From assembly GCA_017418945.1 (NCBI GenBank), contig JAFOMI010000040.1, positions 32 through 64,031 on the forward strand: DNA of 64,000 bases. Direction: 5' to 3'. Positions 1 through 7,767 of the stretch are shown in pieces. This DNA is from Bacilli bacterium (GTDB lineage Bacteria; Bacillota_I; Bacilli_A; RF39; UBA660). The position numbers and the translations under genes are program-made. The first letter of the stretch is position 1. Each line of letters starts with the position of its first letter. The notes under the pieces are model-generated. The model had not been told where the DNA came from. It was given only the letters and a program-made list of their open reading frames with translations, and did no database searches.

Positions 1-25
1 TATGATAAAATAATATTGGAATTTG

Positions 26-51
26 AATTGGTCAGTTACAACTGACCAATT
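26..51. repeat. Perfect 10-bp inverted repeat with a 6-nt spacer (aattggtcag-ttacaa-ctgaccaatt)
   Basis: Read directly: 26-35 is the exact reverse complement of 42-51. No T-run follows, so it is more likely a protein-binding site or the stem of an upstream terminator than a classic intrinsic terminator. Confidence 0.45.
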
Positions 52-131
52 TAGAAATGAACAAATTAAAAATAATATGAAGTTAGAATATTATTTAGAT
101 TTTTTACTACAAATAAAAAGTTAATTTATAT

Positions 132-165
132 TTGTTAAAAATTATATATATTTAAATGGTATAAT
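132..165 (+). promoter_or_regulatory. Putative promoter of the 188-2133 operon (TTGTTA ... extended -10 TGgTATAAT)
   Basis: TGgTATAAT at 157-165 is a perfect extended -10, about 22 nt upstream of the ATG region. The -35-like TTGTTA at 132-137 has long spacing, so the -10 is the main evidence. Confidence 0.35.
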
Positions 166-187
166 TATAATTGGTTTAGGTGATGTT

Positions 188-1084
188 ATGTTAAGACAAT
201 TTAAAGGAATAAAATGGATAAATAATATTCCGAATTTTATTTTATATGATTATGAAAACAATATTATTGAATACAAAAAGGTTGAGGGAATTATAGATAT
301 AAAAAAAGAAGGTTTGAAAAAATGCAATGGGTATTATGATTTGGTTACACATAAATATGTTGTATGTCCAAATTTTAATAGTAGCGAATCAGATAATGTT
401 AAACAATGTGAAACATGTTCAAATATTACCGGATTTAATGAATGTCTTGGATGTGATGGTAAATATTGCAGAACTACTAATAGTATTGCAAAAGAATTTT
501 GTAATCAAAAACATGTTGTGTATATTGCTTTGTTTGGAAATAATAAATTTAAAGTTGGAACAGCAGCTGAATATAGAAAATATTCAAGAATACTTGAACA
601 AGGTGCTATAGCATCAATGTTTATTGCAGAAACACCAGATGGTAAACAGGCAAGATTTATAGAACATACAATATCAAAATTAGGATATGTACTTCAAGTG
701 AATTCATCGTTTAAATTGAAGAATTTAGTAATTGATAAGGATCGTATCGAAATTGAAAATATTTTAAAAAAACATTACAACAATATTATGAATGACATCC
801 CTGATGCTTTGAAAAAATTTTTAATTTCTCCCGAAATTAATTATTGTGAAAAAATTAATAAAATAAATAAAAGTATTTTTTCGGCAAATGATATGCAGTT
901 ATCTCTTCTTGAGGATAATATTGAAAACACATATGACATTAACTATTTGTTGCATTATGATAGTATATGTGGTAAAATAGCAAACGTTATTGGAACTTTT
1001 CTAGTAATAAAATCAAATAATGATTTTGTAATTTACGATACTAAAGAATTAGAGGGATGTATTGTAAAAATAAAATTAGGTTAG
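188..1084 (+). CDS. Cys-rich (zinc-ribbon-like) protein with a T5orf172/MUG113 GIY-YIG-like domain
   Basis: 298-aa ORF. Cysteine cluster CETC...CLGCDGKYC, followed by VYIALFGNNKFKVGTAAEYRKYSRILEQG and ARFIEHTISKLGY. This resembles the T5orf172 (GIY-YIG-like) pattern YKIGxT...RxxQL...AE..H..L. A 12-bp gap to the next ORF implies an operon. The domain call is from memory of the family consensus only. Confidence 0.5.
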   Translation: MLRQFKGIKWINNIPNFILYDYENNIIEYKKVEGIIDIKKEGLKKCNGYYDLVTHKYVVCPNFNSSESDNVKQCETCSNITGFNECLGCDGKYCRTTNSIAKEFCNQKHVVYIALFGNNKFKVGTAAEYRKYSRILEQGAIASMFIAETPDGKQARFIEHTISKLGYVLQVNSSFKLKNLVIDKDRIEIENILKKHYNNIMNDIPDALKKFLISPEINYCEKINKINKSIFSANDMQLSLLEDNIENTYDINYLLHYDSICGKIANVIGTFLVIKSNNDFVIYDTKELEGCIVKIKLG

Positions 1085-1095
1085 GGGAATTTTAA

Positions 1096-2133
1096 ATGTT
1101 TGATTATCACGGAATAGATTACAGTAGTATAGTTGATTTAGGTTATACAATGGCAACTTTTGAAAACCATTCGATGGGGCAATCACTTGAAAGATATATT
1201 GAAATGAAATTACAAGATATAATCTTTAGTGATTCAATATCAGAAATACGTGTTGTAGGTAATTATGATAGAACTAAAGGTATTTCTGTTAAAGAAAAAA
1301 ATGATAAAACTTTCAATTATAAGCGACCAACAGTTTTTGTGAATGGTGATGTTGCAACAATTAATTGTTATCCTGGTATGGATTATGTATATCATTATGC
1401 AAGTCTAGTAAAAACATATTTAGCTATATTAGGCATAAAAAAGAAAATTACAGTACAATTTCCTACAGTTCAACAAATTGAAAATCAATTAATGCGCTCT
1501 AATATAAATGAGATACCAAAATGTAAAACAGTAATATTAGGATATGTTCAAGGTTTTGAGTATTTGTCTAATACAGAAAATTGGCTTGGAACAGGAGATT
1601 TTTTGTGGAAGCAAATAACAGACGATAAAATATTAGTTGGTTGTAAGCATAGTTACTGGGGAGATATTGCTGGTTATATTGTTGCCGCATTAGCACGAAA
1701 AGGCGTAAAAAGAGTTATATATGTAGGAAAACTTGGAACATTAAACAAAAACTATGCACCAAATGAGACAATTGCTACAGGAAATAAAAGTATATTTATT
1801 GATGGTAGTTTTGTTGAATGGAATAATGTATTTGAAGATTTTAATTCTGATGCCATTAAGAATGGTATTCATTATACATTACCTAGTATAATTCAAGAAA
1901 CAAAAGAATGGGTTTTACAAAATAGAGAAGAAATTGCATTTGTTGATCCAGAAATTGGGCATATGGCTAAATCAGCAATGCAAAACGGAATTGATTATTC
2001 ATATTTACATATTATATCTGACAATTTATCAAAAAAATTCTCAGAAGACCTATCTAACGAAAGAAAAGAAGATGTCTTAATTAAAAGAAAAAAATTAATC
2101 AAGACAATAGGAAATTGCTTAATGGATATATAA
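1096..2133 (+). CDS. PNP/MTA-nucleosidase-fold (PNP_UDP_1-like) domain protein with an unassigned ~140-aa N-terminal region
   Basis: 345 aa. C-terminal half has ILVGCKHSYWGDIAGYIVAALARKGVKRVIYVGKLG, DPEIGHMAKSAMQNGI and LHIISDNL. These mirror the G-rich loop, the E..A motif and the terminal (I/V)SD motif of MTA/SAH nucleosidase and purine nucleoside phosphorylase fold proteins. The N-terminal ~140 aa was not recognised. Confidence 0.55.
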   Translation: MFDYHGIDYSSIVDLGYTMATFENHSMGQSLERYIEMKLQDIIFSDSISEIRVVGNYDRTKGISVKEKNDKTFNYKRPTVFVNGDVATINCYPGMDYVYHYASLVKTYLAILGIKKKITVQFPTVQQIENQLMRSNINEIPKCKTVILGYVQGFEYLSNTENWLGTGDFLWKQITDDKILVGCKHSYWGDIAGYIVAALARKGVKRVIYVGKLGTLNKNYAPNETIATGNKSIFIDGSFVEWNNVFEDFNSDAIKNGIHYTLPSIIQETKEWVLQNREEIAFVDPEIGHMAKSAMQNGIDYSYLHIISDNLSKKFSEDLSNERKEDVLIKRKKLIKTIGNCLMDI

Positions 2134-2136
2134 AAA

Positions 2137-2164
2137 CTGTGTATTTAAACACAGTTATTTTTTT
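2137..2164. terminator. Bidirectional intrinsic terminator between convergent genes
   Basis: Hairpin ctgtgt-atttaa-acacag (2137-2154) with an A-run before and T-run after. It sits between the + strand stop at 2133 and the - strand stop at 2145-2147. Confidence 0.5.
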
Positions 2165-2714
2165 CCATTACTAATTGAGGGTATCCTGCAAATATTTGTT
2201 TTCCAACTTTAATATTTAATTCTTCTATAGTATCCATAATATATTTCATACTATCATCCTCATTATCATATAAATTTGTTTTGAATTCTAATTCGATGAA
2301 ATCACCTAAATTTTCTATGGAATCAATTGATATAACAATATTATTATATTCGAATGAGTTTCTTTTTTTTTCAACAACTATTATTTGTTTGAAATCTAGT
2401 GCATCTAGCATTTCAATCATTCCGTTATAGTCATCTATTCCAATTTCAATTTCTTTACAAGAAATTTTATTATTACCATTATTATTACTCCAATTTTTGT
2501 AATTAATAGTTTTTTCTTCCTTTGTATCTCTTATTCTAAGCCATTCTGAAATAGGTTTTTTTTCAAGAAAATTCTCATGTGCTGGTGTATAATATATATC
2601 CTTTTGATAATTGTTTTCTTCAATTGTTTTACCTAATTCTTTTAATTTTGATATTGTTTCTTTTTTGTTATGTAAAGGAAATTTTGCTTCAATCTCAATT
2701 CTTTTTCTTTCCAT
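2145..2714 (-). CDS. CYTH-domain protein (class IV adenylyl cyclase CyaB / triphosphate-tunnel metalloenzyme family)
   Basis: N-terminal IEIEAKF matches the CYTH ExExK signature. The size (~189 aa from the internal start MERKRIEIEAKF, which has a GGAGG RBS; the ORF-track start at 2762 is less likely) is typical of CyaB-like proteins. Confidence 0.6.
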   Translation of the reverse strand: MERKRIEIEAKFPLHNKKETISKLKELGKTIEENNYQKDIYYTPAHENFLEKKPISEWLRIRDTKEEKTINYKNWSNNNGNNKISCKEIEIGIDDYNGMIEMLDALDFKQIIVVEKKRNSFEYNNIVISIDSIENLGDFIELEFKTNLYDNEDDSMKYIMDTIEELNIKVGKQIFAGYPQLVMEKNNCV

Positions 2715-2887
2715 ATCTTTACCTCCATATGAATTATATAATATTTTACTTTTTAAAGTCAATTAACTATAATCATAAATTCTAAAAATATATATTTGAA
2801 AAAAACTGTAATTAAAAAAATAAGATGTAATTAAATAGACTTGTATTTATTACTTCTAATTTCTTCAGTGCAGTTATTAAATTTAAC

Positions 2888-2975
2888 TTTTTTTGTTGCA
2901 ACTAACTAGATTTGTGGTAAATGTTCATACTGATATGTATTAATTCTTAATCGTTACTGAAAGTTGTAAATAATT
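2888..2975 (+). repeat. Copy A of a ~90-bp direct repeat carrying a sigma-A-type promoter plus conserved leader
   Basis: ttttttgTTGCAA-N16-TGgTAAATg followed by atactgatatgtattaattcttaatcgttactgaaagttgtaaataa. Aligns at about 85% identity with 3845-3943. It points into the 3' end of the convergent 2998-3822 gene. Confidence 0.6.
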
Positions 2976-2997
2976 ACTTGATTTATTTATAATATTA

Positions 2998-3822
2998 TTA
3001 TTGATATATTGCAATAGGAATTACAACAAATGCTGGACCCATTATTTTGTCTTTTATTTCTTTAGGATTGGACATATTTTTTTTAGATATCTGCCTTCTT
3101 TGTTCACGATTGATTGCCATTGATTTAACATCTTCAAATATTTCATCTAAGCATATACTATTTCCTTTTTCTATTTTCTTTTGAACTTTACATAGCATGT
3201 ATACTTGAGAAACAAAATTATCTTTAGATGTTTTTAAAAATGTTTTATCTATATTACCAATTAATGGATATTTTTTGTCTTCAAAGTTAAAAACACAGGA
3301 AAGTGAATTGTCATTTCTAGAATTAGATAACATTTGAAATCCATCTAAAGCCTCTTGTTCCTTTTCATCTATTATATTATTACCTAGAAAAGGTGCAAAT
3401 GCATCATATAGTTGTTTAAAACCATTTACAGCATTTGTTACTTCTTCTAATTTTGAAAAGCGTGGTGTTACTAAAACTTCAATAAAATCATCTCTATAAA
3501 TATTATCCCATATTTCTTGATTTATATTTTCATAATATTTTAATTCATCATTTTCTTTTAAATATTTAATTATTCTATCCAATTTACTTGCATCATTTAC
3601 TCTTGCATTTAATAATATTTTTTCTTCTTTTTGACTACCTAAGTTCCCTTCCATATTTGCTTTGGAAAATCCAACGCCTAGTTTTCCACCTTTATTAGTT
3701 GTTGAACTTTGTGTTATTTCTTGTTCTTCATAAATATATCCATCAATAATGGAAATATAATTGTCAAGTGCCTCAGTATCTGCATATAAAATTTTTCTAA
3801 GCATCTTTATCACCTCTGACAA
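2998..3822 (-). CDS. Hypothetical protein (274 aa) with a hydrophobic C-terminal tail (GPAFVVIPIAIYQ)
   Basis: Long ORF with an aggaGGTGAtaaagATG-type RBS upstream on the minus strand. No recognisable motif. Flanked by direct-repeat copies A and B. Confidence 0.6.
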   Translation of the reverse strand: MSEVIKMLRKILYADTEALDNYISIIDGYIYEEQEITQSSTTNKGGKLGVGFSKANMEGNLGSQKEEKILLNARVNDASKLDRIIKYLKENDELKYYENINQEIWDNIYRDDFIEVLVTPRFSKLEEVTNAVNGFKQLYDAFAPFLGNNIIDEKEQEALDGFQMLSNSRNDNSLSCVFNFEDKKYPLIGNIDKTFLKTSKDNFVSQVYMLCKVQKKIEKGNSICLDEIFEDVKSMAINREQRRQISKKNMSNPKEIKDKIMGPAFVVIPIAIYQ

Positions 3823-3844
3823 TATTCTATCATAAAATCAGCAC

Positions 3845-3952
3845 TTTTTTATTGCAATTAGTCAATTTTATGGTAAAATATTTATAGAGAATGATACTGA
3901 TATGTATTAATTCCTAATCGTGATGGAAAAGTTGTAAATAACTTAACCAATC
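3845..3952 (+). repeat. Copy B of the ~90-bp direct repeat (promoter plus conserved leader)
   Basis: ttttttaTTGCAA(3852-3857)-N16-TGgTAAAAT(3871-3879) followed by atgatactgatatgtattaattcctaatcgtgatggaaaagttgtaaataa. Same architecture as copy A. Confidence 0.6.
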
Positions 3953-3997
3953 GCTCCAGATTGATGAATAATACGAACTTATAGTTCGTTTTTTTTA
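3886..3997 (+). ncRNA. Candidate ~110-nt small RNA (promoter of repeat copy B to an intrinsic terminator)
   Basis: Near-consensus promoter (TTGCAA-16-TGgTAAAAT) with predicted TSS around 3886. Conserved leader, then hairpin acgaact-tat-agttcgt (3973-3989) plus T8 (3990-3997). No ORF with an RBS in between. The downstream CDS has its own RBS at 4041-4046. Confidence 0.4.
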
Positions 3998-4054
3998 TAC
4001 TTGAATAATAAGATTATGTTTGATAAAATATTTTTTATCAAGAGGGAAAACTAT

Positions 4055-4579
4055 ATGGGTTATTATAATAAAATGTTAGATTTATATTTTAAAGAAAAGA
4101 ATTATACAAAAGAAGAAATAGAAAAAATATTGGATGAAAATCCTTTTGATTCAAATTTTTCGCATTGGGAAAGTAATATATTATTTGAAGGTAAGTTATT
4201 TTCTAATTCTCTTAAGAAAAATGGAATTGTAGGTAGAGATGATTCTGTACAAGAATTAGTATTGTTTGATGAATTAGGTGTATGTAAGAATGTTACTAAT
4301 TATGTGGATTATATAAAGATAAATGATAATAATGTAAAAGGTACTAAAGTCGCTAAGAAAAAGGTAATATATAAAGGGCATTATGATGAAGAATATGAAT
4401 TTTTAAAATGCCTAGAATATAAAAGAATACCATTTGCTATTGGAATATGTACAAAAGATAAAGAATATTATAAAAGAATTTTAGAAATATATAAGTTTTA
4501 TTTATTAAAATTTAAAAATAGTAAAGTAATAGATGAAATAGATTATAATAGAGATATTTTAATATTTAAATCAAGATAA
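4055..4579 (+). CDS. Hypothetical protein (174 aa from the RBS-supported ATG)
   Basis: AGAGGG RBS 8 nt before the ATG at 4055 (MGYYNKMLDLYF...). The ORF track begins at a TTG at 4001 with no RBS. No recognisable domain. Confidence 0.55.
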   Translation: MGYYNKMLDLYFKEKNYTKEEIEKILDENPFDSNFSHWESNILFEGKLFSNSLKKNGIVGRDDSVQELVLFDELGVCKNVTNYVDYIKINDNNVKGTKVAKKKVIYKGHYDEEYEFLKCLEYKRIPFAIGICTKDKEYYKRILEIYKFYLLKFKNSKVIDEIDYNRDILIFKSR

Positions 4580-4601
4580 GGATTTTTTTTACATAAATGT
4601 A

Positions 4602-4629
4602 TTGATTAAAATAAAATTTATGGTAAAAT
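4602..4629 (+). promoter_or_regulatory. Promoter of the tRNA-Gly gene (TTGATT-N16-TGgTAAAAT)
   Basis: -35 TTGATT at 4602-4607 and extended -10 tggtaaaat at 4621-4629, about 12 nt before the tRNA 5' end. Shares the 17-nt string ttatggtaaaatattt with repeat copy B. Confidence 0.55.
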
Positions 4630-4640
4630 ATTTCTTGTAC

Positions 4641-4715
4641 GCAAGTGTAGTACAATGGTTAGTACGAGGCCTTGCCAAGGCTTAGACGAGAGTTCGATTC
4701 TCTTCACTTGCTCCA
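4641..4715 (+). tRNA. tRNA-Gly (anticodon GCC)
   Basis: Cloverleaf folded by hand: acceptor gcaagtg/cacttgc, D-arm gtac-aatggtta-gtac, anticodon stem aggcc/ggctt with loop ttGCCaa, T-arm gagag-ttcgatt-ctctt, discriminator T and encoded CCA. Confidence 0.85.
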
Positions 4716-4723
4716 AAAAAAGT

Positions 4724-4751
4724 TACTAGTCGGTTGACTAGTTTTTTTTTT
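4724..4751 (+). terminator. Intrinsic terminator after the tRNA (bidirectional-looking)
   Basis: Hairpin actagtc-ggtt-gactagt followed by T10, preceded by an A7 run. Confidence 0.7.
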
Positions 4752-4764
4752 GGAACAAGTTAAG

Positions 4765-4797
4765 CTTACTCTCGTCTAAGCTCTTTACTAACCATTG
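4765..4797 (-). repeat. Inverted, internally deleted partial copy of the tRNA-Gly gene
   Basis: The reverse complement caatggttagtaaagagcttagacgagagtaag matches the tRNA D-loop/D-stem (caatggttagta) and the variable/T-stem region (gcttagacgagag), with the anticodon arm missing. Confidence 0.55.
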
Positions 4798-4917
4798 AAA
4801 TTATTGCCTAAAAGTAATAATATCCTTTTTTTTGAACTTTTAATATAACTAATATTTATAATTGATTAAATATCAAAAAAAATATATAATAAAAATATAT
4901 AGTATAGAGGTGGTTAA

Positions 4918-5544
4918 ATGAAAAAGGTTAGAGAAGAGTATTTAAATGATAAAATTAATTATGATAAAAAGCAGTTAATTGGAATTGTTTCATTAATTAT
5001 TATATTTTCTGGTTTGTTTGGTTATGTTTATGAATTTATTTTTTATTATTTTAATGGTGGAATGAAAACTTTTTATATGCAAGGAGGTAATTTCTTACCA
5101 TGGATTAATATTTATGCGATAGGTGGTATTATTATTTTGATATTAACAAGTAAGTATAAAAAGAGTCCTTTTAATGTATTTTTTATTAGTTTAATATCAT
5201 CTCTTTTATTAGAATTTACATCTGGTTATATTTTAAATCATTTATTTGGATTAAGATTCTGGAATTATAATAATGAAATACTTAATTTTGGAAATGTAGG
5301 TGGATATATTTGTTTTAGAAGCGTTACTTTCTTTGGTATATCTGGTTTATTATTAATTTACTTCATTATTCCATTTTGTATTTATTTATCAAAAAAATTT
5401 AATCATAAAAAGTTTATGATATTATGCTTAATTATATTAAGTATAGTTTTATTAGATGAAGTTTATAATTTATTAATATGTAAGCTGTTTGATTTACCAT
5501 CTGCGATTAAAATATATAAAAGCTTAGGATTTAAATATGTATAA
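4918..5544 (+). CDS. Hypothetical polytopic membrane protein
   Basis: 208 aa with about 5-6 hydrophobic segments. RBS agaggtgg before the ATG. Confidence 0.6.
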   Translation: MKKVREEYLNDKINYDKKQLIGIVSLIIIFSGLFGYVYEFIFYYFNGGMKTFYMQGGNFLPWINIYAIGGIIILILTSKYKKSPFNVFFISLISSLLLEFTSGYILNHLFGLRFWNYNNEILNFGNVGGYICFRSVTFFGISGLLLIYFIIPFCIYLSKKFNHKKFMILCLIILSIVLLDEVYNLLICKLFDLPSAIKIYKSLGFKYV

Positions 5545-5557
5545 AAAAATAGTGAGA

Positions 5558-6907
5558 TTATTTTTTAATCTCACTATTTTTTAATGTTAAAGTCTTATTG
5601 TTATTTTTCATTTTTCCTTCATTATATAATTCTACTTCACTTACTAAGTCTAAAGGTTTATAATCTTTAATATTATTCTTTATTCTTTGAAGTTTTTCTT
5701 CTACATCACGAAGTGCGTAACTAAGACCTCTCATTTGTTTTTCTAGAGCAGGATTATTTGTATTTGAATTAAAGTATTTATCATCATGAAGAGCCCATGC
5801 ATCCATTACCATTGTTCTAACTATTACTTCCATTATAATAGGTTGAACATCATTTACCATAGGTATATTAAAGACTAAATTAATCTTATATCCTCTATAT
5901 CCAGATGGTTTTGGTTCAGCAAATCTATCACTTATACTTGTAATTTCTACATTATCCATTTTACCAATTTCTTGTTTAAATTGTTTTATAAAATCTAACG
6001 CAACTTTTTCATCTATACAAACTACTTTAAATCCAATAATATCGTGTATGTTTGTAATGATATCTTTAGCAGTACATGATAGTTTTCTCATTTTTAATTT
6101 TCTATTTATACTTGGTAAAGATTTTATTCTTGATGTTACATGAAGAATATCTCCTTTATTATCGTAATTTTTTATAAAAGTCTTTAAATCTTCATCAAAT
6201 TTATTATTTATGATTTGATAAAGGTGTCCTATTTTTTTATATTCTTCTTGTATTTTTTGTAATTCTTCATTACTTTGTTCTTCTTTATTAATACTTTCTT
6301 TTCTAATTAATTCATCTAATGCTTTATCATAGAAGAATAATTCATCACTAAGTTTTTTTAATTCATTTTTATCTTCTAAACTAGCATTACCTTTATAACT
6401 TAATTTATGTTCTTCTCTTGCGAATATATCCATGAATATAGTTCTTATTTGTATTTCTGCATAAACATAACTTATACCAGAAGATTTTTTTATTGGAACT
6501 TTTACAATAACGTGATATCCCATATATCCACTTTCTTTAGGGTCCTTGATATAATCTTTTATTTTTTCAATTTCAAAGTATTTAGTATTTTTTATTGTAT
6601 CAAGTACTTCTTTTGCATCAGTTAAGTTTAAACAAACTAATCTTACTCCAACAACATCACGTATATTATCGTAAGTTATATCTCTATTTTCTCTATTCAT
6701 TCTATCATTTATTTTATTTAAAAAACTATTTTCTTTTTTTATTCTTTCACTTTGATAGGCAACTTTATCTTTAATACCTTCGTTTTTTAATTTTTCCATT
6801 ATTTCTAAAAGATTATTTAAGGCATTAATATTATTTTCTTTTTCATATCTATAACGCACTAACTCTGATAATAGTTTTTCTTTTCTTTCATCAGTTAATG
6901 TAGCCAT
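5558..6907 (-). CDS. Tandem two-domain RelA/SpoT-family nucleotide pyrophosphokinase (duplicated small-alarmone-synthetase-like domains)
   Basis: Domain 1: DVVGVRLVC ... DYIKDPKESGYMGYH ... AEIQIRTIFMDIFAREEHKLSYK. Domain 2: DIIGFKVVC ... AEPKPSGYRGYK ... MEVIVRTMVMDAWALHDDKYF. Both match the RelQ/RelP synthetase motifs D..G.R, PK.SGY and (I/V)Q(I/V)RT..M..WA. Start taken at the RBS-supported MATLTDE (AGAGGG); the ORF track extends to 6991. Confidence 0.75.
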   Translation of the reverse strand: MATLTDERKEKLLSELVRYRYEKENNINALNNLLEIMEKLKNEGIKDKVAYQSERIKKENSFLNKINDRMNRENRDITYDNIRDVVGVRLVCLNLTDAKEVLDTIKNTKYFEIEKIKDYIKDPKESGYMGYHVIVKVPIKKSSGISYVYAEIQIRTIFMDIFAREEHKLSYKGNASLEDKNELKKLSDELFFYDKALDELIRKESINKEEQSNEELQKIQEEYKKIGHLYQIINNKFDEDLKTFIKNYDNKGDILHVTSRIKSLPSINRKLKMRKLSCTAKDIITNIHDIIGFKVVCIDEKVALDFIKQFKQEIGKMDNVEITSISDRFAEPKPSGYRGYKINLVFNIPMVNDVQPIIMEVIVRTMVMDAWALHDDKYFNSNTNNPALEKQMRGLSYALRDVEEKLQRIKNNIKDYKPLDLVSEVELYNEGKMKNNNKTLTLKNSEIKK

Positions 6908-6993
6908 TTTATCCCTCTTTTCGAAGTGAAGATAATATATCACTTTTTTGGTTAAAAAGCAAATTTTTAAAAAAAAGAAGTAAATTTTCATAT

Positions 6994-7767
6994 TTACTTC
7001 TTAATTATCTCTTTAACTTTTTGAACAGCACCTTGAGTATTTTTTTCTCCAAATGCTTGTAATACTTCGATTGGAATTGCAAATATTATTGTATTTGATT
7101 GATCTGATGATAAATCGTTTAAAGTAGCTAATGTTCTTAAATGTAATGCACCTGGTGAATTACTAAGTACATTAGCAGCTTTAGCTAAATTATCTGCAGC
7201 TTCTTTTTCACCTTTAGATTTAGTAATAACTGCTTCTTTTTCTCTTTCAGCTTCTGCAACTTTTGCAATAACTCTTTGCATTTCTTCTGGTAATTTAACA
7301 TCTTTTAATTCAACATTTTCAACTTTAATTCCCCAAGGATCAGTTGCTTCATCAATTACTTTACATATTTCAGTTGATATTTTATCTCTTTCTGATAATA
7401 ATTCATCTAGTGAAACAGCACCAACTGCATTTCTCATTGTAGTTTGTGCAAGTTGTCCAACAGCATATTGATATCTTTCAACAGCAAGAATTGCTTTAGA
7501 TGCATCAAATACTTTATAGTAAATAACTGCATTAATTCTAATAGATACATTATCTTTAGTAATTGCATCTTGTTCAGGAACATCAACTGCTTTTGTTCTT
7601 ATATCAACTTTTTTGTATGATTCTATGATAGGTAATACTAAATTCCAACCTGGTTTCATAATTCTTTTGAATTTACCAAATCTAAATTTAATACCTCTTT
7701 CATATTCAGATACTTGTCTTATTGATATAAGTATAATAAATATAATAATTCCTATAATAATTTTCAT
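6994..7767 (-). CDS. SPFH/band-7 (stomatin/prohibitin-like) membrane protein
   Basis: N-terminal TM helix, then the SPFH core (IRTKAVDVPEQDAITKDNVSIRINAVIYYKV ... WGIKVENVELKDVKLPEEMQ) and an A/E-rich coiled-coil tail. Confidence 0.85.
   Translation of the reverse strand: MKIIIGIIIFIILISIRQVSEYERGIKFRFGKFKRIMKPGWNLVLPIIESYKKVDIRTKAVDVPEQDAITKDNVSIRINAVIYYKVFDASKAILAVERYQYAVGQLAQTTMRNAVGAVSLDELLSERDKISTEICKVIDEATDPWGIKVENVELKDVKLPEEMQRVIAKVAEAEREKEAVITKSKGEKEAADNLAKAANVLSNSPGALHLRTLATLNDLSSDQSNTIIFAIPIEVLQAFGEKNTQGAVQKVKEIIKK

Follow-up and report, generated by a model that had tools for sequence, protein, structure and literature searches.

Direct repeats beside a tRNA-Gly gene in a gut Bacilli bacterium as probable right-end modules of tRNA-targeting integrative mobilizable elements

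What are the two direct repeats that flank a single gene close to a tRNA-Gly gene in a 64 000-nucleotide (nt) stretch of a Bacilli bacterium (GenBank assembly GCA_017418945.1, contig JAFOMI010000040.1; the whole stretch is called the window)? An earlier note, made from the sequence alone, saw in the right-hand repeat (copy B) a small RNA (sRNA) gene running from promoter to terminator and in the left-hand one (copy A) a possible source of antisense RNA; the scar of an insertion beside the tRNA was its last and least-favoured option. That last option is the one closest to the comparative evidence. Both repeats are very probably copies, one intact (B) and one decayed (A), of a module at the right end of integrative mobilizable elements (IMEs) that target tRNA genes in AT-rich gut Bacilli, and their arrangement is the scar of stacked insertions; the framing as host sRNA and antisense RNA is mostly explained away. 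Proteins were assigned using Pfam and PADLOC models and tRNAs using ARAGORN; the contigs compared are labelled L001–L166, and the features of the window are collected in Table 1.

The 27-nt core ATACTGATATGTATTAATTCYTAATCG occurs at exactly two sites in the 64 kb (2927–2953 and 3894–3920, both on the + strand), with no match in 100 shuffled sequences and none expected by chance. A gapped alignment of 2880–2985 with 3837–3960 has identical letters in 84 out of 100 aligned columns, in agreement with the identity of about 85% given earlier, and the copies lie in direct orientation, 967 bp apart. They are not equivalent, however, because copy A has a damaged -10 element, an internal deletion and neither the 3' end nor a terminator. 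The promoter of copy B, with its TG extension, is listed by the promoter scan, whereas the one claimed for copy A is not: its -10 is one A short, so that the hexamer lacks its final T. In addition, 11 nt are deleted between the -10 and the core of copy A, the 5' strand of the first hairpin (P1) is missing, and the resemblance to copy B does not extend beyond about 2976, so that the last ∼20 nt (..CTTAACCAATCGCTCCA, the 3' arm of the attachment site, or att site) are gone and there is no GCTCCA. Copy B does end with GCTCCA, the terminal six bases of tRNA-Gly. Behind it, a hairpin at 3973–3989 followed by T8 passes the terminator scan (six terminator-like sites versus 0.5 expected); the clean terminator reported there does exist, but it belongs to the left end of the next element. 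A promoter and a terminator around a non-coding stretch, as in an sRNA gene, are found for copy B alone, where the terminator comes from the sequence that happens to follow the junction, and the only small open reading frames (ORFs) in the module encode MY and MEKL, each directly followed by a stop codon and neither conserved.

Over the 64 kb, the family model (R1) finds no module besides these two copies. Copy B scores 70.5 bits, as expected because an identical sequence sits in the seed of the model, and copy A, with 12.6 bits (E = 4), does not rise above noise. Rfam has no match at E ≤ 10 over 3845–3997 or 2888–2976 (scan of 2000–5500); a match to MIR9563 was discarded as spurious, being the hairpin that tRNA-Gly makes with an inverted pseudo-tRNA. 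The extended -10 string noted earlier as common to copy B and the tRNA-Gly promoter is indeed shared, within the 16-mer TTATGGTAAAATATTT (3868–3883 and 4618–4633). We considered the tRNA-Gly promoter as a third copy of the module and rejected this, as tRNA-Gly in other species has a promoter that is independent but shares this leader (..GTAC, then GC).

The repeat is conserved in relatives. Its most conserved 18-mer, AACTTAACCAATCGCTCC, was searched against one genome per species and is found in ∼45 AT-rich Bacilli or Mollicutes-like genomes (with titles such as uncultured Bacilli, Tenericutes, Mollicutes, Erysipelotrichaceae, Acholeplasma sp. CAG:878, Candidatus Onthousia and Candidatus Ventrenecus), along with about a dozen chance matches in high-GC genomes; the module is also found in many metagenome contigs. 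The 18-mer has no match in viral contigs, and a phage origin was rejected. Every true match keeps the promoter and a ∼73-nt core, (T)AGAAATTGATAC..GTATTAATTC..GTGATGGAAAAGTTGTAAATAACTTAACCAATCGCTCCA. Similarity breaks off right after GCTCCA, and what lies beyond is one of a handful of recurrent sequence types; for example, the GATTGAT... type that follows copy B also follows modules in L012, L026, L049, L108 and L120. Identical types stand after the CCA ends of modules and after the CCA ends of tRNA-Cys, tRNA-Gly(GCC) and tRNA-Gly(UCC) genes in other species. Most genomes have a single module, always at the end of an element, and the gene downstream of it varies by locus. A housekeeping RNA, present once in most genomes and serving as the target, was also considered and rejected: the flanks have no conserved synteny, Mob_Pre and cargo genes lie upstream on the same strand, and the element of L077 brings its own module along to a new site.

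Comparison of contigs from the same species establishes the junctions and their polymorphism directly. L002 and L005 are the same as the window until 4715, the CCA end of tRNA-Gly, and diverge immediately after it into GATTGATAGGAAACTCG..., which leads into a pair of hairpins, an ORF of 90 aa, a serine recombinase of 619 aa and Mob_Pre; the GATTGAT... type that follows the tRNA-Gly ...GCTCCA there is also the one that follows the GCTCCA of copy B at 3959. L007 is 100% identical to window positions 203–3958 and switches after GCTCCA to another recurrent type, AAAGATAAAATCGTCG.... Among same-species contexts fetched via the CmpB gene, L077 (ERZ27256647) is one in which a complete element of 5.9 kb separates tRNA-Gly from CmpB. 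This element has its own divergent module, ending with ...CAACTATCGCTCCA (ATCGCTCCA), which is joined to the tRNA-Gly trailer of the window (...CAACTATCGCTCCA followed by AAAAAAGTTACTAGTCGG). Because the module end abuts the exact trailer AAAAAAGTTACTAGTCGGTTGACTAG, the module is carried by the element and the window represents the empty site, between 4715 and 4716; an occupied site (attL and attR in L077) and an empty one are thus observed in one species with the same flanks. By the same comparison, the GCTCCA end after 3958 is a recombination junction shared with tRNA genes. To the left of the window, L001 has tRNA-Cys...CCTCCA followed by TTGGGAAATCTGTTCGAAC.., a 91-aa ORF and a truncated serine recombinase, and runs into window position 1; the left end of the innermost element lies ∼1.6 kb left of the window start (extended by L001 and L078).

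The element architecture is equally apparent from comparison of more than 100 related loci, in which the module is the last feature of IMEs of 5–11 kb. Oriented by the module, the recurrent order is a tRNA gene ending with CCA, hairpins, a small ORF, a large serine recombinase, Mob_Pre, cargo, and a module ending with CCA, and this order is repeated in tandem at several loci. The cargo is mostly on the opposite strand and often defence-like; next to the module, most loci have ABC ATPases, helicases, giant proteins or HD hydrolases. The recombinases of L077, L002 and L044 are proteins of 619–710 aa with Resolvase and Recombinase domains (plus Zn_ribbon in L077, whose recombinase has 642 aa), and the Mob_Pre relaxase is found in L044, L077 and 16 module loci. 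There is no conjugation pore, since elements of just 5–11 kb are too small for one. The small ORF (90–113 aa) always lies between the left-end hairpins and the recombinase (L002:2324–2596, L001:10989–11264, L044:5900–6241, L077:3995–4267); Pfam has no match for it, and it could serve as a directionality factor or a regulator.

An independent sample, picked by recombinase and not by module, gives the same order. It comprises 80 metagenome loci with relatives of the recombinase (63–98% identity). At least 55 of the 80 have a tRNA gene on the same strand 520–870 nt upstream of the recombinase (the targets are tRNA-Gly with anticodons GCC, UCC or CCC, and tRNA-Cys, -Leu, -Thr, -Arg and -Gln). In this sample, a covariance model derived from a diverse set of 44 modules has 44 matches at E ≤ 1e-3, all on the recombinase strand and 43 of them 2.3–7.5 kb downstream. 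When the first downstream module is compared with the upstream tRNA, the terminal 5-mer (N72, N73, CCA) is equal in 25 out of 25 cases and the 6-mer in 21 out of 25; the matching 5-mers are of five types (CTCCA, CACCA, TACCA, AGCCA and AACCA), so the module end changes with the target tRNA. Recombinase subgroups differ in their targets: the group with 79–98% identity and the first of the ∼66–67% loci (to L120, with Thr and Leu exceptions) are mostly at Gly or Cys genes, with discriminator U, and the remaining ∼63–67% loci, mostly with discriminator A or G, are chiefly at Leu, Thr, Arg and Gln genes, although several (e.g. L125, L149, L156 and L163–166) are at tRNA-Gly once more.

The anatomy of the junctions points to an attachment site. 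In position profiles, the consensus on the tRNA side is ...GGTTCGAtTC...GCtCCA followed by the left end nTGACGnATCTGTTCGAACT (conserved across L087–L166), and on the module side ...AAAAGTTgtAaATAacT...GCtCCA. The module motif AAAGTTG at -31 to -25 has an inverted partner at +17 to +23, the two being symmetric around position -4, the discriminator base; the T-loop motif GGTTC of the tRNA lies ∼4 bp nearer to the centre (17 bp, versus 21 bp for AAAGTTG). Sites of large serine integrases (e.g. those of phage A118/LI integrase, Bxb1 and phiC31) are ∼40–56 bp long, with imperfect dyad symmetry and a central crossover, and their outer recognition motif is a few bp further out in attP (∼50–56 bp) than in attB. 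The putative sites described here are similar in having symmetric motifs, with the outer motif further out on the element side, and the central bases of element site and target are identical, as for attP (the 5-mer in 25 out of 25). We infer that the element contributes its arm of the attachment site as the module's 3' half, with crossover at N72/N73.

The geometry seen in the window is typical of the family, because module pairs recur in other species and contexts. Direct pairs around one or two ORFs are found in L156, L157, L055, L071 and L067 with spacings of 861, 742, 1620, 1614 and 1534 nt, respectively, and L011, L037 and L164 each have two modules 3.3–4.6 kb apart. The paired modules (L156:15482–16411, L157:18177–18998, L055:6027–7722, L071:4402–6091, L067:5458–7067) are near-identical, and some loci have the same hairpin behind each. 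Such units look like cassettes: a left-end hairpin, cargo and a module, with no recombinase or relaxase of their own. In L018 (630–1775) and L019, the DUF6414 gene with the module variant that is also present in L017 is followed, past the CCA junction, by a convergent tyrosine integrase and no serine-recombinase left end; other types of elements may use the same site.

Based on these comparisons, we propose that the elements insert directly after the CCA end of tRNA genes. A complete element runs from tRNA...N72-N73-CCA through one or two hairpins, an ORF of ∼90–110 aa, the large serine recombinase, Mob_Pre (MobV) and cargo to the module, whose end repeats N72-N73-CCA and is followed by the original tRNA trailer. 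In the excised circle, the 3' half of the module (AAAGTT, ∼25 nt, GCTCCA) and the left end would form a ∼56-bp site symmetric about the discriminator, and the module's 5' half would provide a strong promoter of the stable-RNA type, then a hairpin. Catalysis by the recombinase, the position of crossover, transcription and the role of the promoter are here deduced from sequence features. Positions 1–4600 would consist of decayed elements arrayed from tRNA-Cys, which lies just beyond the window, to tRNA-Gly: unit 1 would consist of the left end, the 91-aa ORF, the broken recombinase (outside the window), DUF2797, the 345-aa ORF, CYTH and copy A; the surviving right part of unit 2 would be DUF6414 and copy B; and unit 3 would be the left-end remnant at 3959–3997 with the 174-aa ORF, probably a leftover of its cargo. 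The array would be followed by tRNA-Gly with its own promoter, with a leader like that of another species. A local deletion that removed the 3' arm and flank, together with small lesions, would be enough to produce copy A as it is now.

Table 1. Features of the window and expected or observed attachment sites
Feature	Position	Strand	Evidence or remark
Cargo of innermost decayed element (DUF2797, 345-aa ORF, CYTH)	1–2762		Leftward extension by L001, L078
DUF2797 protein	188–1084	+	Pfam
345-aa ORF, unassigned	1096–2133	+	
CYTH protein	2145–2714	-	Pfam
Copy A, decayed right-end module	2888–2976	+	84/100 identity to copy B
Copy A, -35 TTGCAA	2896–2901	+	
Copy A, damaged extended -10 TGGTAAAT	2915–2922	+	
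Copy A, core to AAAGTTGTAAATAA	2927 to ∼2973	+	
DUF6414 (DolA-like) protein, 268 aa from ATG 3804	2998–3804	-	PF19952, E = 4.5e-39
Copy B, intact right-end module	3845–3958	+	Promoter and terminator scans, folding, family model, strain junctions
Copy B, -35 TTGCAA, then 16-nt spacer	3852–3857	+	
Copy B, extended -10 TGGTAAAAT	3871–3879	+	
Copy B, predicted start	∼3886	+	
Copy B, hairpin P1	3889–3913	+	
Copy B, hairpin P2	3920–3954	+	
Copy B, invariant AAAGTT	3928–3933	+	
Copy B, 4-nt TCCA overhang	3955–3958	+	
Remnant left end of further element, GATTGAT... type	3959–3997	+	Strain and locus comparison
174-aa ORF	4055–4579	+	Always linked to copy B in same-species contigs
tRNA-Gly(GCC), 3' ...TTGCTCCA, attachment site	4641–4715	+	ARAGORN; sole tRNA found in window
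Native tRNA-Gly trailer and terminator (AAAAAAGTTACTAGTCGGTTGACTAG and T-run)	4716–4752	+	Terminator scan; far-side flank of attachment site
CmpB-like protein	4918–5544	+	Pfam
RelA_SpoT protein, 477 aa	5558–6991	-	PADLOC candidate PDC-S33, E = 9.5e-34
Band_7 (SPFH) protein	6994–7767	-	Pfam
Excised-circle junction, as expected			...CACTCAACTATCGCTCCA, then TTGAGGAATCTGCTCGG
Empty tRNA-Gly site			...CACTTGCTCCA, then AAAAAAGTTACTAG

The 5' half of the module has a conserved promoter (TGnTAnnnT in 71 out of 88 unique modules) followed by a hairpin of 7–10 bp, whose sequences differ by subfamily: TTGATAC/GTATTAA, GATTGATAT/ATATCAATC or GGATGAT/ATCATCC. Modules fold better than dinucleotide shuffles (mean z = -2.6, with 30 out of 44 below -2). 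Of the leaders named in the earlier note, that of copy B does so (z = -2.6 for the RNA 3886–3997), whereas that of copy A folds no better than shuffles (z = -0.7). The usual predicted shape has two hairpins, and in many modules, copy B included, the second leaves a 4-nt NCCA overhang. If G-U pairs are allowed, the first hairpin has 8.1 bp on the + strand and 5.8 bp on the other. In the conserved subset, 85% of the pairing cells pair, versus 27–52% when the partner columns are slid. An RNAalifold consensus gives only a 4–5-bp helix, and column-wise pair counts are uninformative; conservation in the set selected by the 18-mer is too high for them, and in MAFFT alignments the subfamilies come out of register. 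Since the layout of copy B is conserved and its predicted RNA folds better than shuffles, a short outward-reading RNA of ∼110 nt is plausible. Such an RNA would resemble a tRNA acceptor arm, end with NCCA and read outward over the junction; in the integrated state it would stop at the tRNA's own terminator or drive a downstream tRNA, and in the tandem or circular state it would run into the next left end. In L045, a tRNA-Gly gene starts 8 nt past the module with no terminator between them, and in L052 tRNA-Cys and tRNA-Gly are 6 nt apart. This suggests that the promoter could keep downstream tRNAs expressed after an insertion whose left end bears terminators; another possible role is to transcribe over the joined ends when the element is circular or in tandem.

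Several observations weigh against the reading of the repeats as module copies left by stacked insertions. The window has no recombinase or relaxase gene, and the link to them rests on other contigs. All ten same-species contigs first fetched (L001–L010) carry both copies, so the DUF6414 unit appears fixed, and none of the ten is a relative with a single repeat and without the segment 2976–3844, a comparison proposed in the earlier note. A decayed element with both att sites kept is not what we see for this unit: copy B keeps its GCTCCA arm and copy A does not, and the unit in the window is therefore a fixed remnant. The breakpoint of the deletion in copy A could not be placed either, as the 3' flanks of DUF6414 genes are unrelated between loci and cannot be aligned, so that the truncating events are irrecoverable. 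Composition accounts for about half of the strand asymmetry of the first hairpin, covariation in the conserved subset is not significant (two double-change pairs, a number attained by 112 out of 500 shuffles), and the outer helix of the second hairpin is not in the same register in all subfamilies. Finally, large serine recombinases normally join attP with attB exclusively. Canonical enzymes are not known to act on an attP-like together with an attR-like site, which is hard to reconcile with the tandem junctions of a module and a left end that are common here.

The strongest rival explanation takes the RNA itself as the functional product (an element-encoded regulatory or tRNA-mimic RNA that is, e.g. 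processed by RNase P or CCA enzymes, controls the recombinase/relaxase operon or titrates a host factor), with its position at the junction being secondary. We consider this rather unlikely. It would account for the retention of the extended -10 in most modules, the folding scores, the 5' hairpin that is kept despite different subfamily sequences with G-U pairs tolerated on the + strand only, and the resemblance of the second hairpin, with its overhang, to an acceptor stem. However, AAAGTT and the last ∼25 nt are conserved as sequence, without covariation of pairs, and have a mirror-image partner across the junction, as for a DNA site bound by protein; the terminal bases track the target tRNA, which a requirement of DNA crossover explains directly; and Rfam has no matching family. 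A host sRNA of ∼110 nt, or a leader of the ORF at 4055–4579, together with an RNA from copy A antisense to the 3' end of DUF6414, is very improbable. Copy B has the promoter, the terminator and the fold for it, and copy A is directed into the 3' end of the convergent DUF6414 gene, but this reading of copy B fails because the conserved unit ends at the 3958 junction, before a terminator that is foreign to it, and the downstream genes are unrelated; what comes next varies by locus and even by strain, several modules have no co-oriented downstream gene, and there is mostly one module per genome, always at an element end. The antisense claim for copy A is weak in view of its damaged -10, its folding score and its noise-level match to the family model.

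Two further explanations concern the two copies and the gene between them, and to each we assign hardly any probability. The repeat might be a regulatory partner of DUF6414, either an antitoxin-like or antisense RNA or an operator common to DUF6414 and CYTH: homologues with 79–93% identity are divergent beside a module in five contexts (among them L011–13, L014–16, L017–19 and L029), where a related promoter-RNA-terminator unit has the same divergent position (one contig has a second full copy 3.3 kb off), and each copy lies upstream of a minus-strand gene, with 174 nt from copy A to the start of CYTH and 40 nt from copy B to that of DUF6414. Most loci, however, pair the same module with unrelated cargo, CYTH genes elsewhere are not linked to modules, and there is no complementarity between module and DUF6414 mRNA beyond the back-to-back promoters (the gene's own extended -10, TGATAGAAT, is back-to-back with the -35 of copy B). 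The adjacency is accounted for by DUF6414 being the final cargo gene ahead of the element end. Alternatively, the intergenic region might simply have been duplicated locally in tandem, without site-specific recombination; this would yield two direct copies 967 bp apart, and both modules of L157 do have the same downstream flank; but the array is bounded by tRNA-Cys and tRNA-Gly and contains recombinase remnants and typical left ends, its geometry recurs with other cargo and flanks in several species, and the strain polymorphism falls exactly at the CCA junctions. Together these comparisons favour the interpretation as IME right-end modules.

As an extension of this interpretation, which we regard as possible but rather doubtful, the module may be a transcribed mimic of the acceptor arm that serves large serine recombinases as a portable attachment arm, each copy being a landing site equipped with a promoter at which cargo is stacked in an integron-like manner. 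The T-loop-like motif would be what the enzyme recognizes, with crossover at the last acceptor pair and the discriminator base, so that two or three bases would set the choice of target (Gly/Cys, or Leu/Thr/Arg or Gln). Each insertion would re-create a tRNA-like landing site with a strong promoter, and downstream tRNAs would stay expressed. Two loci hint at a possible origin of the module's 3' half from tRNA 3' halves. In L129 (7990–8054; the element targets tRNA-Leu(CAA)), ∼2 kb past the module, a 14-nt exact repeat of the tRNA end follows a genuine-looking T arm and acceptor strand of tRNA-Leu, and in L113 (14840–14942) a 14-nt repeat is followed by the left end of another element.

Other genes in the window were also noted. 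The partner genes downstream of DUF6414 vary between loci (encoding CYTH, HTH, His_Phos and HD_4/AAA_28 proteins). In the Dodola defence system, a DUF6414 protein serves as DolA and is paired with the ClpB-like DolB (bioRxiv 10.1101/2024.10.26.620412); the gene between the repeats is of this family but, unlike in Dodola, it has no ClpB-like gene nearby and no PADLOC match, so the pair is absent. The 174-aa ORF at 4055–4579 has no match to Pfam or PADLOC families. Beyond CmpB, the RelA_SpoT protein has a weak ADP-ribose glycohydrolase-like region and its gene adjoins the Band_7/SPFH gene; the pair (5558–7767) may be an alarmone-synthetase defence or toxin module near a tRNA hotspot. At 4745–4808, on the - strand, there is a degenerate inverted copy of tRNA-Gly, tail-to-tail with the tRNA-Gly gene across a common terminator: CAATGGTTAGTA...GCTTAGACGAGAG...CTTAACTTGTTCCA is kept, and the anticodon loop and part of the T arm are lost. 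It is still present in L077, beyond the inserted element. In L003 (4610–5732, corresponding to window ∼107–110), an IS30-like insertion (HTH_38 and rve, 332 aa) lies just 5' of the DUF2797 gene, and in L008 the CYTH gene is broken into two ORFs.

Stacking of elements at tRNA genes is known. [quoted passage not shown] The elements described here are similar in that insertion at the 3' end leaves the tRNA intact, decayed arrays are bounded by att repeats, and recombinase and relaxase lie at one end, followed by cargo. They differ in using a large serine recombinase and in their repeats: those of the known cases are the 3' part of the tRNA, whereas here a ∼110-bp promoter-bearing module has just its last 5–6 bases in common with the tRNA. 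The closest analogue is the ssrA islands of Dehalococcoides, in which a CcrB-like serine recombinase has built tandem arrays with 20-bp repeats at the 3' end of the transfer-messenger RNA (tmRNA) gene (PMC3146451). They share the serine recombinase, the 3' end of a stable RNA, tandem arrays, short direct repeats and an integration module by attL, but they target the tmRNA T-loop, have no MobV relaxase, belong to another phylum, and have no described promoter or structured-RNA module at the far end. In a 2020 survey, which put the rate at 4.9%, 14 out of 297 serine-integrase islands were at tRNA or tmRNA genes, which its authors called unreported and in need of proof (PMC7192596); here it is a whole family (the ≥55 out of 80 loci at six kinds of tRNA genes), with the junction exactly after CCA. 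We found no description in the literature of a far-end module that bears a promoter and mimics a tRNA end, and Rfam has none. Serine-recombinase elements at tRNA 3' ends with such a transcribed mimic appear to be little described.

For annotation, this means that apparent sRNA genes, from promoter to terminator, beside tRNA genes in these gut lineages can be the ends of mobile elements. The repeat is a marker for delimiting such elements and their cargo (DolA-like, CYTH and other defence-type genes). Serine integrases have been regarded as not using tRNA genes; the recombinase family described here inserts exactly after the CCA of tRNA genes, with the target apparently set via the discriminator region, and it could yield simple retargetable integrases for uncultured gut Bacilli. 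If it is true that the module re-creates a promoter-bearing landing site, this would explain the compact cassette arrays beside tRNA genes.

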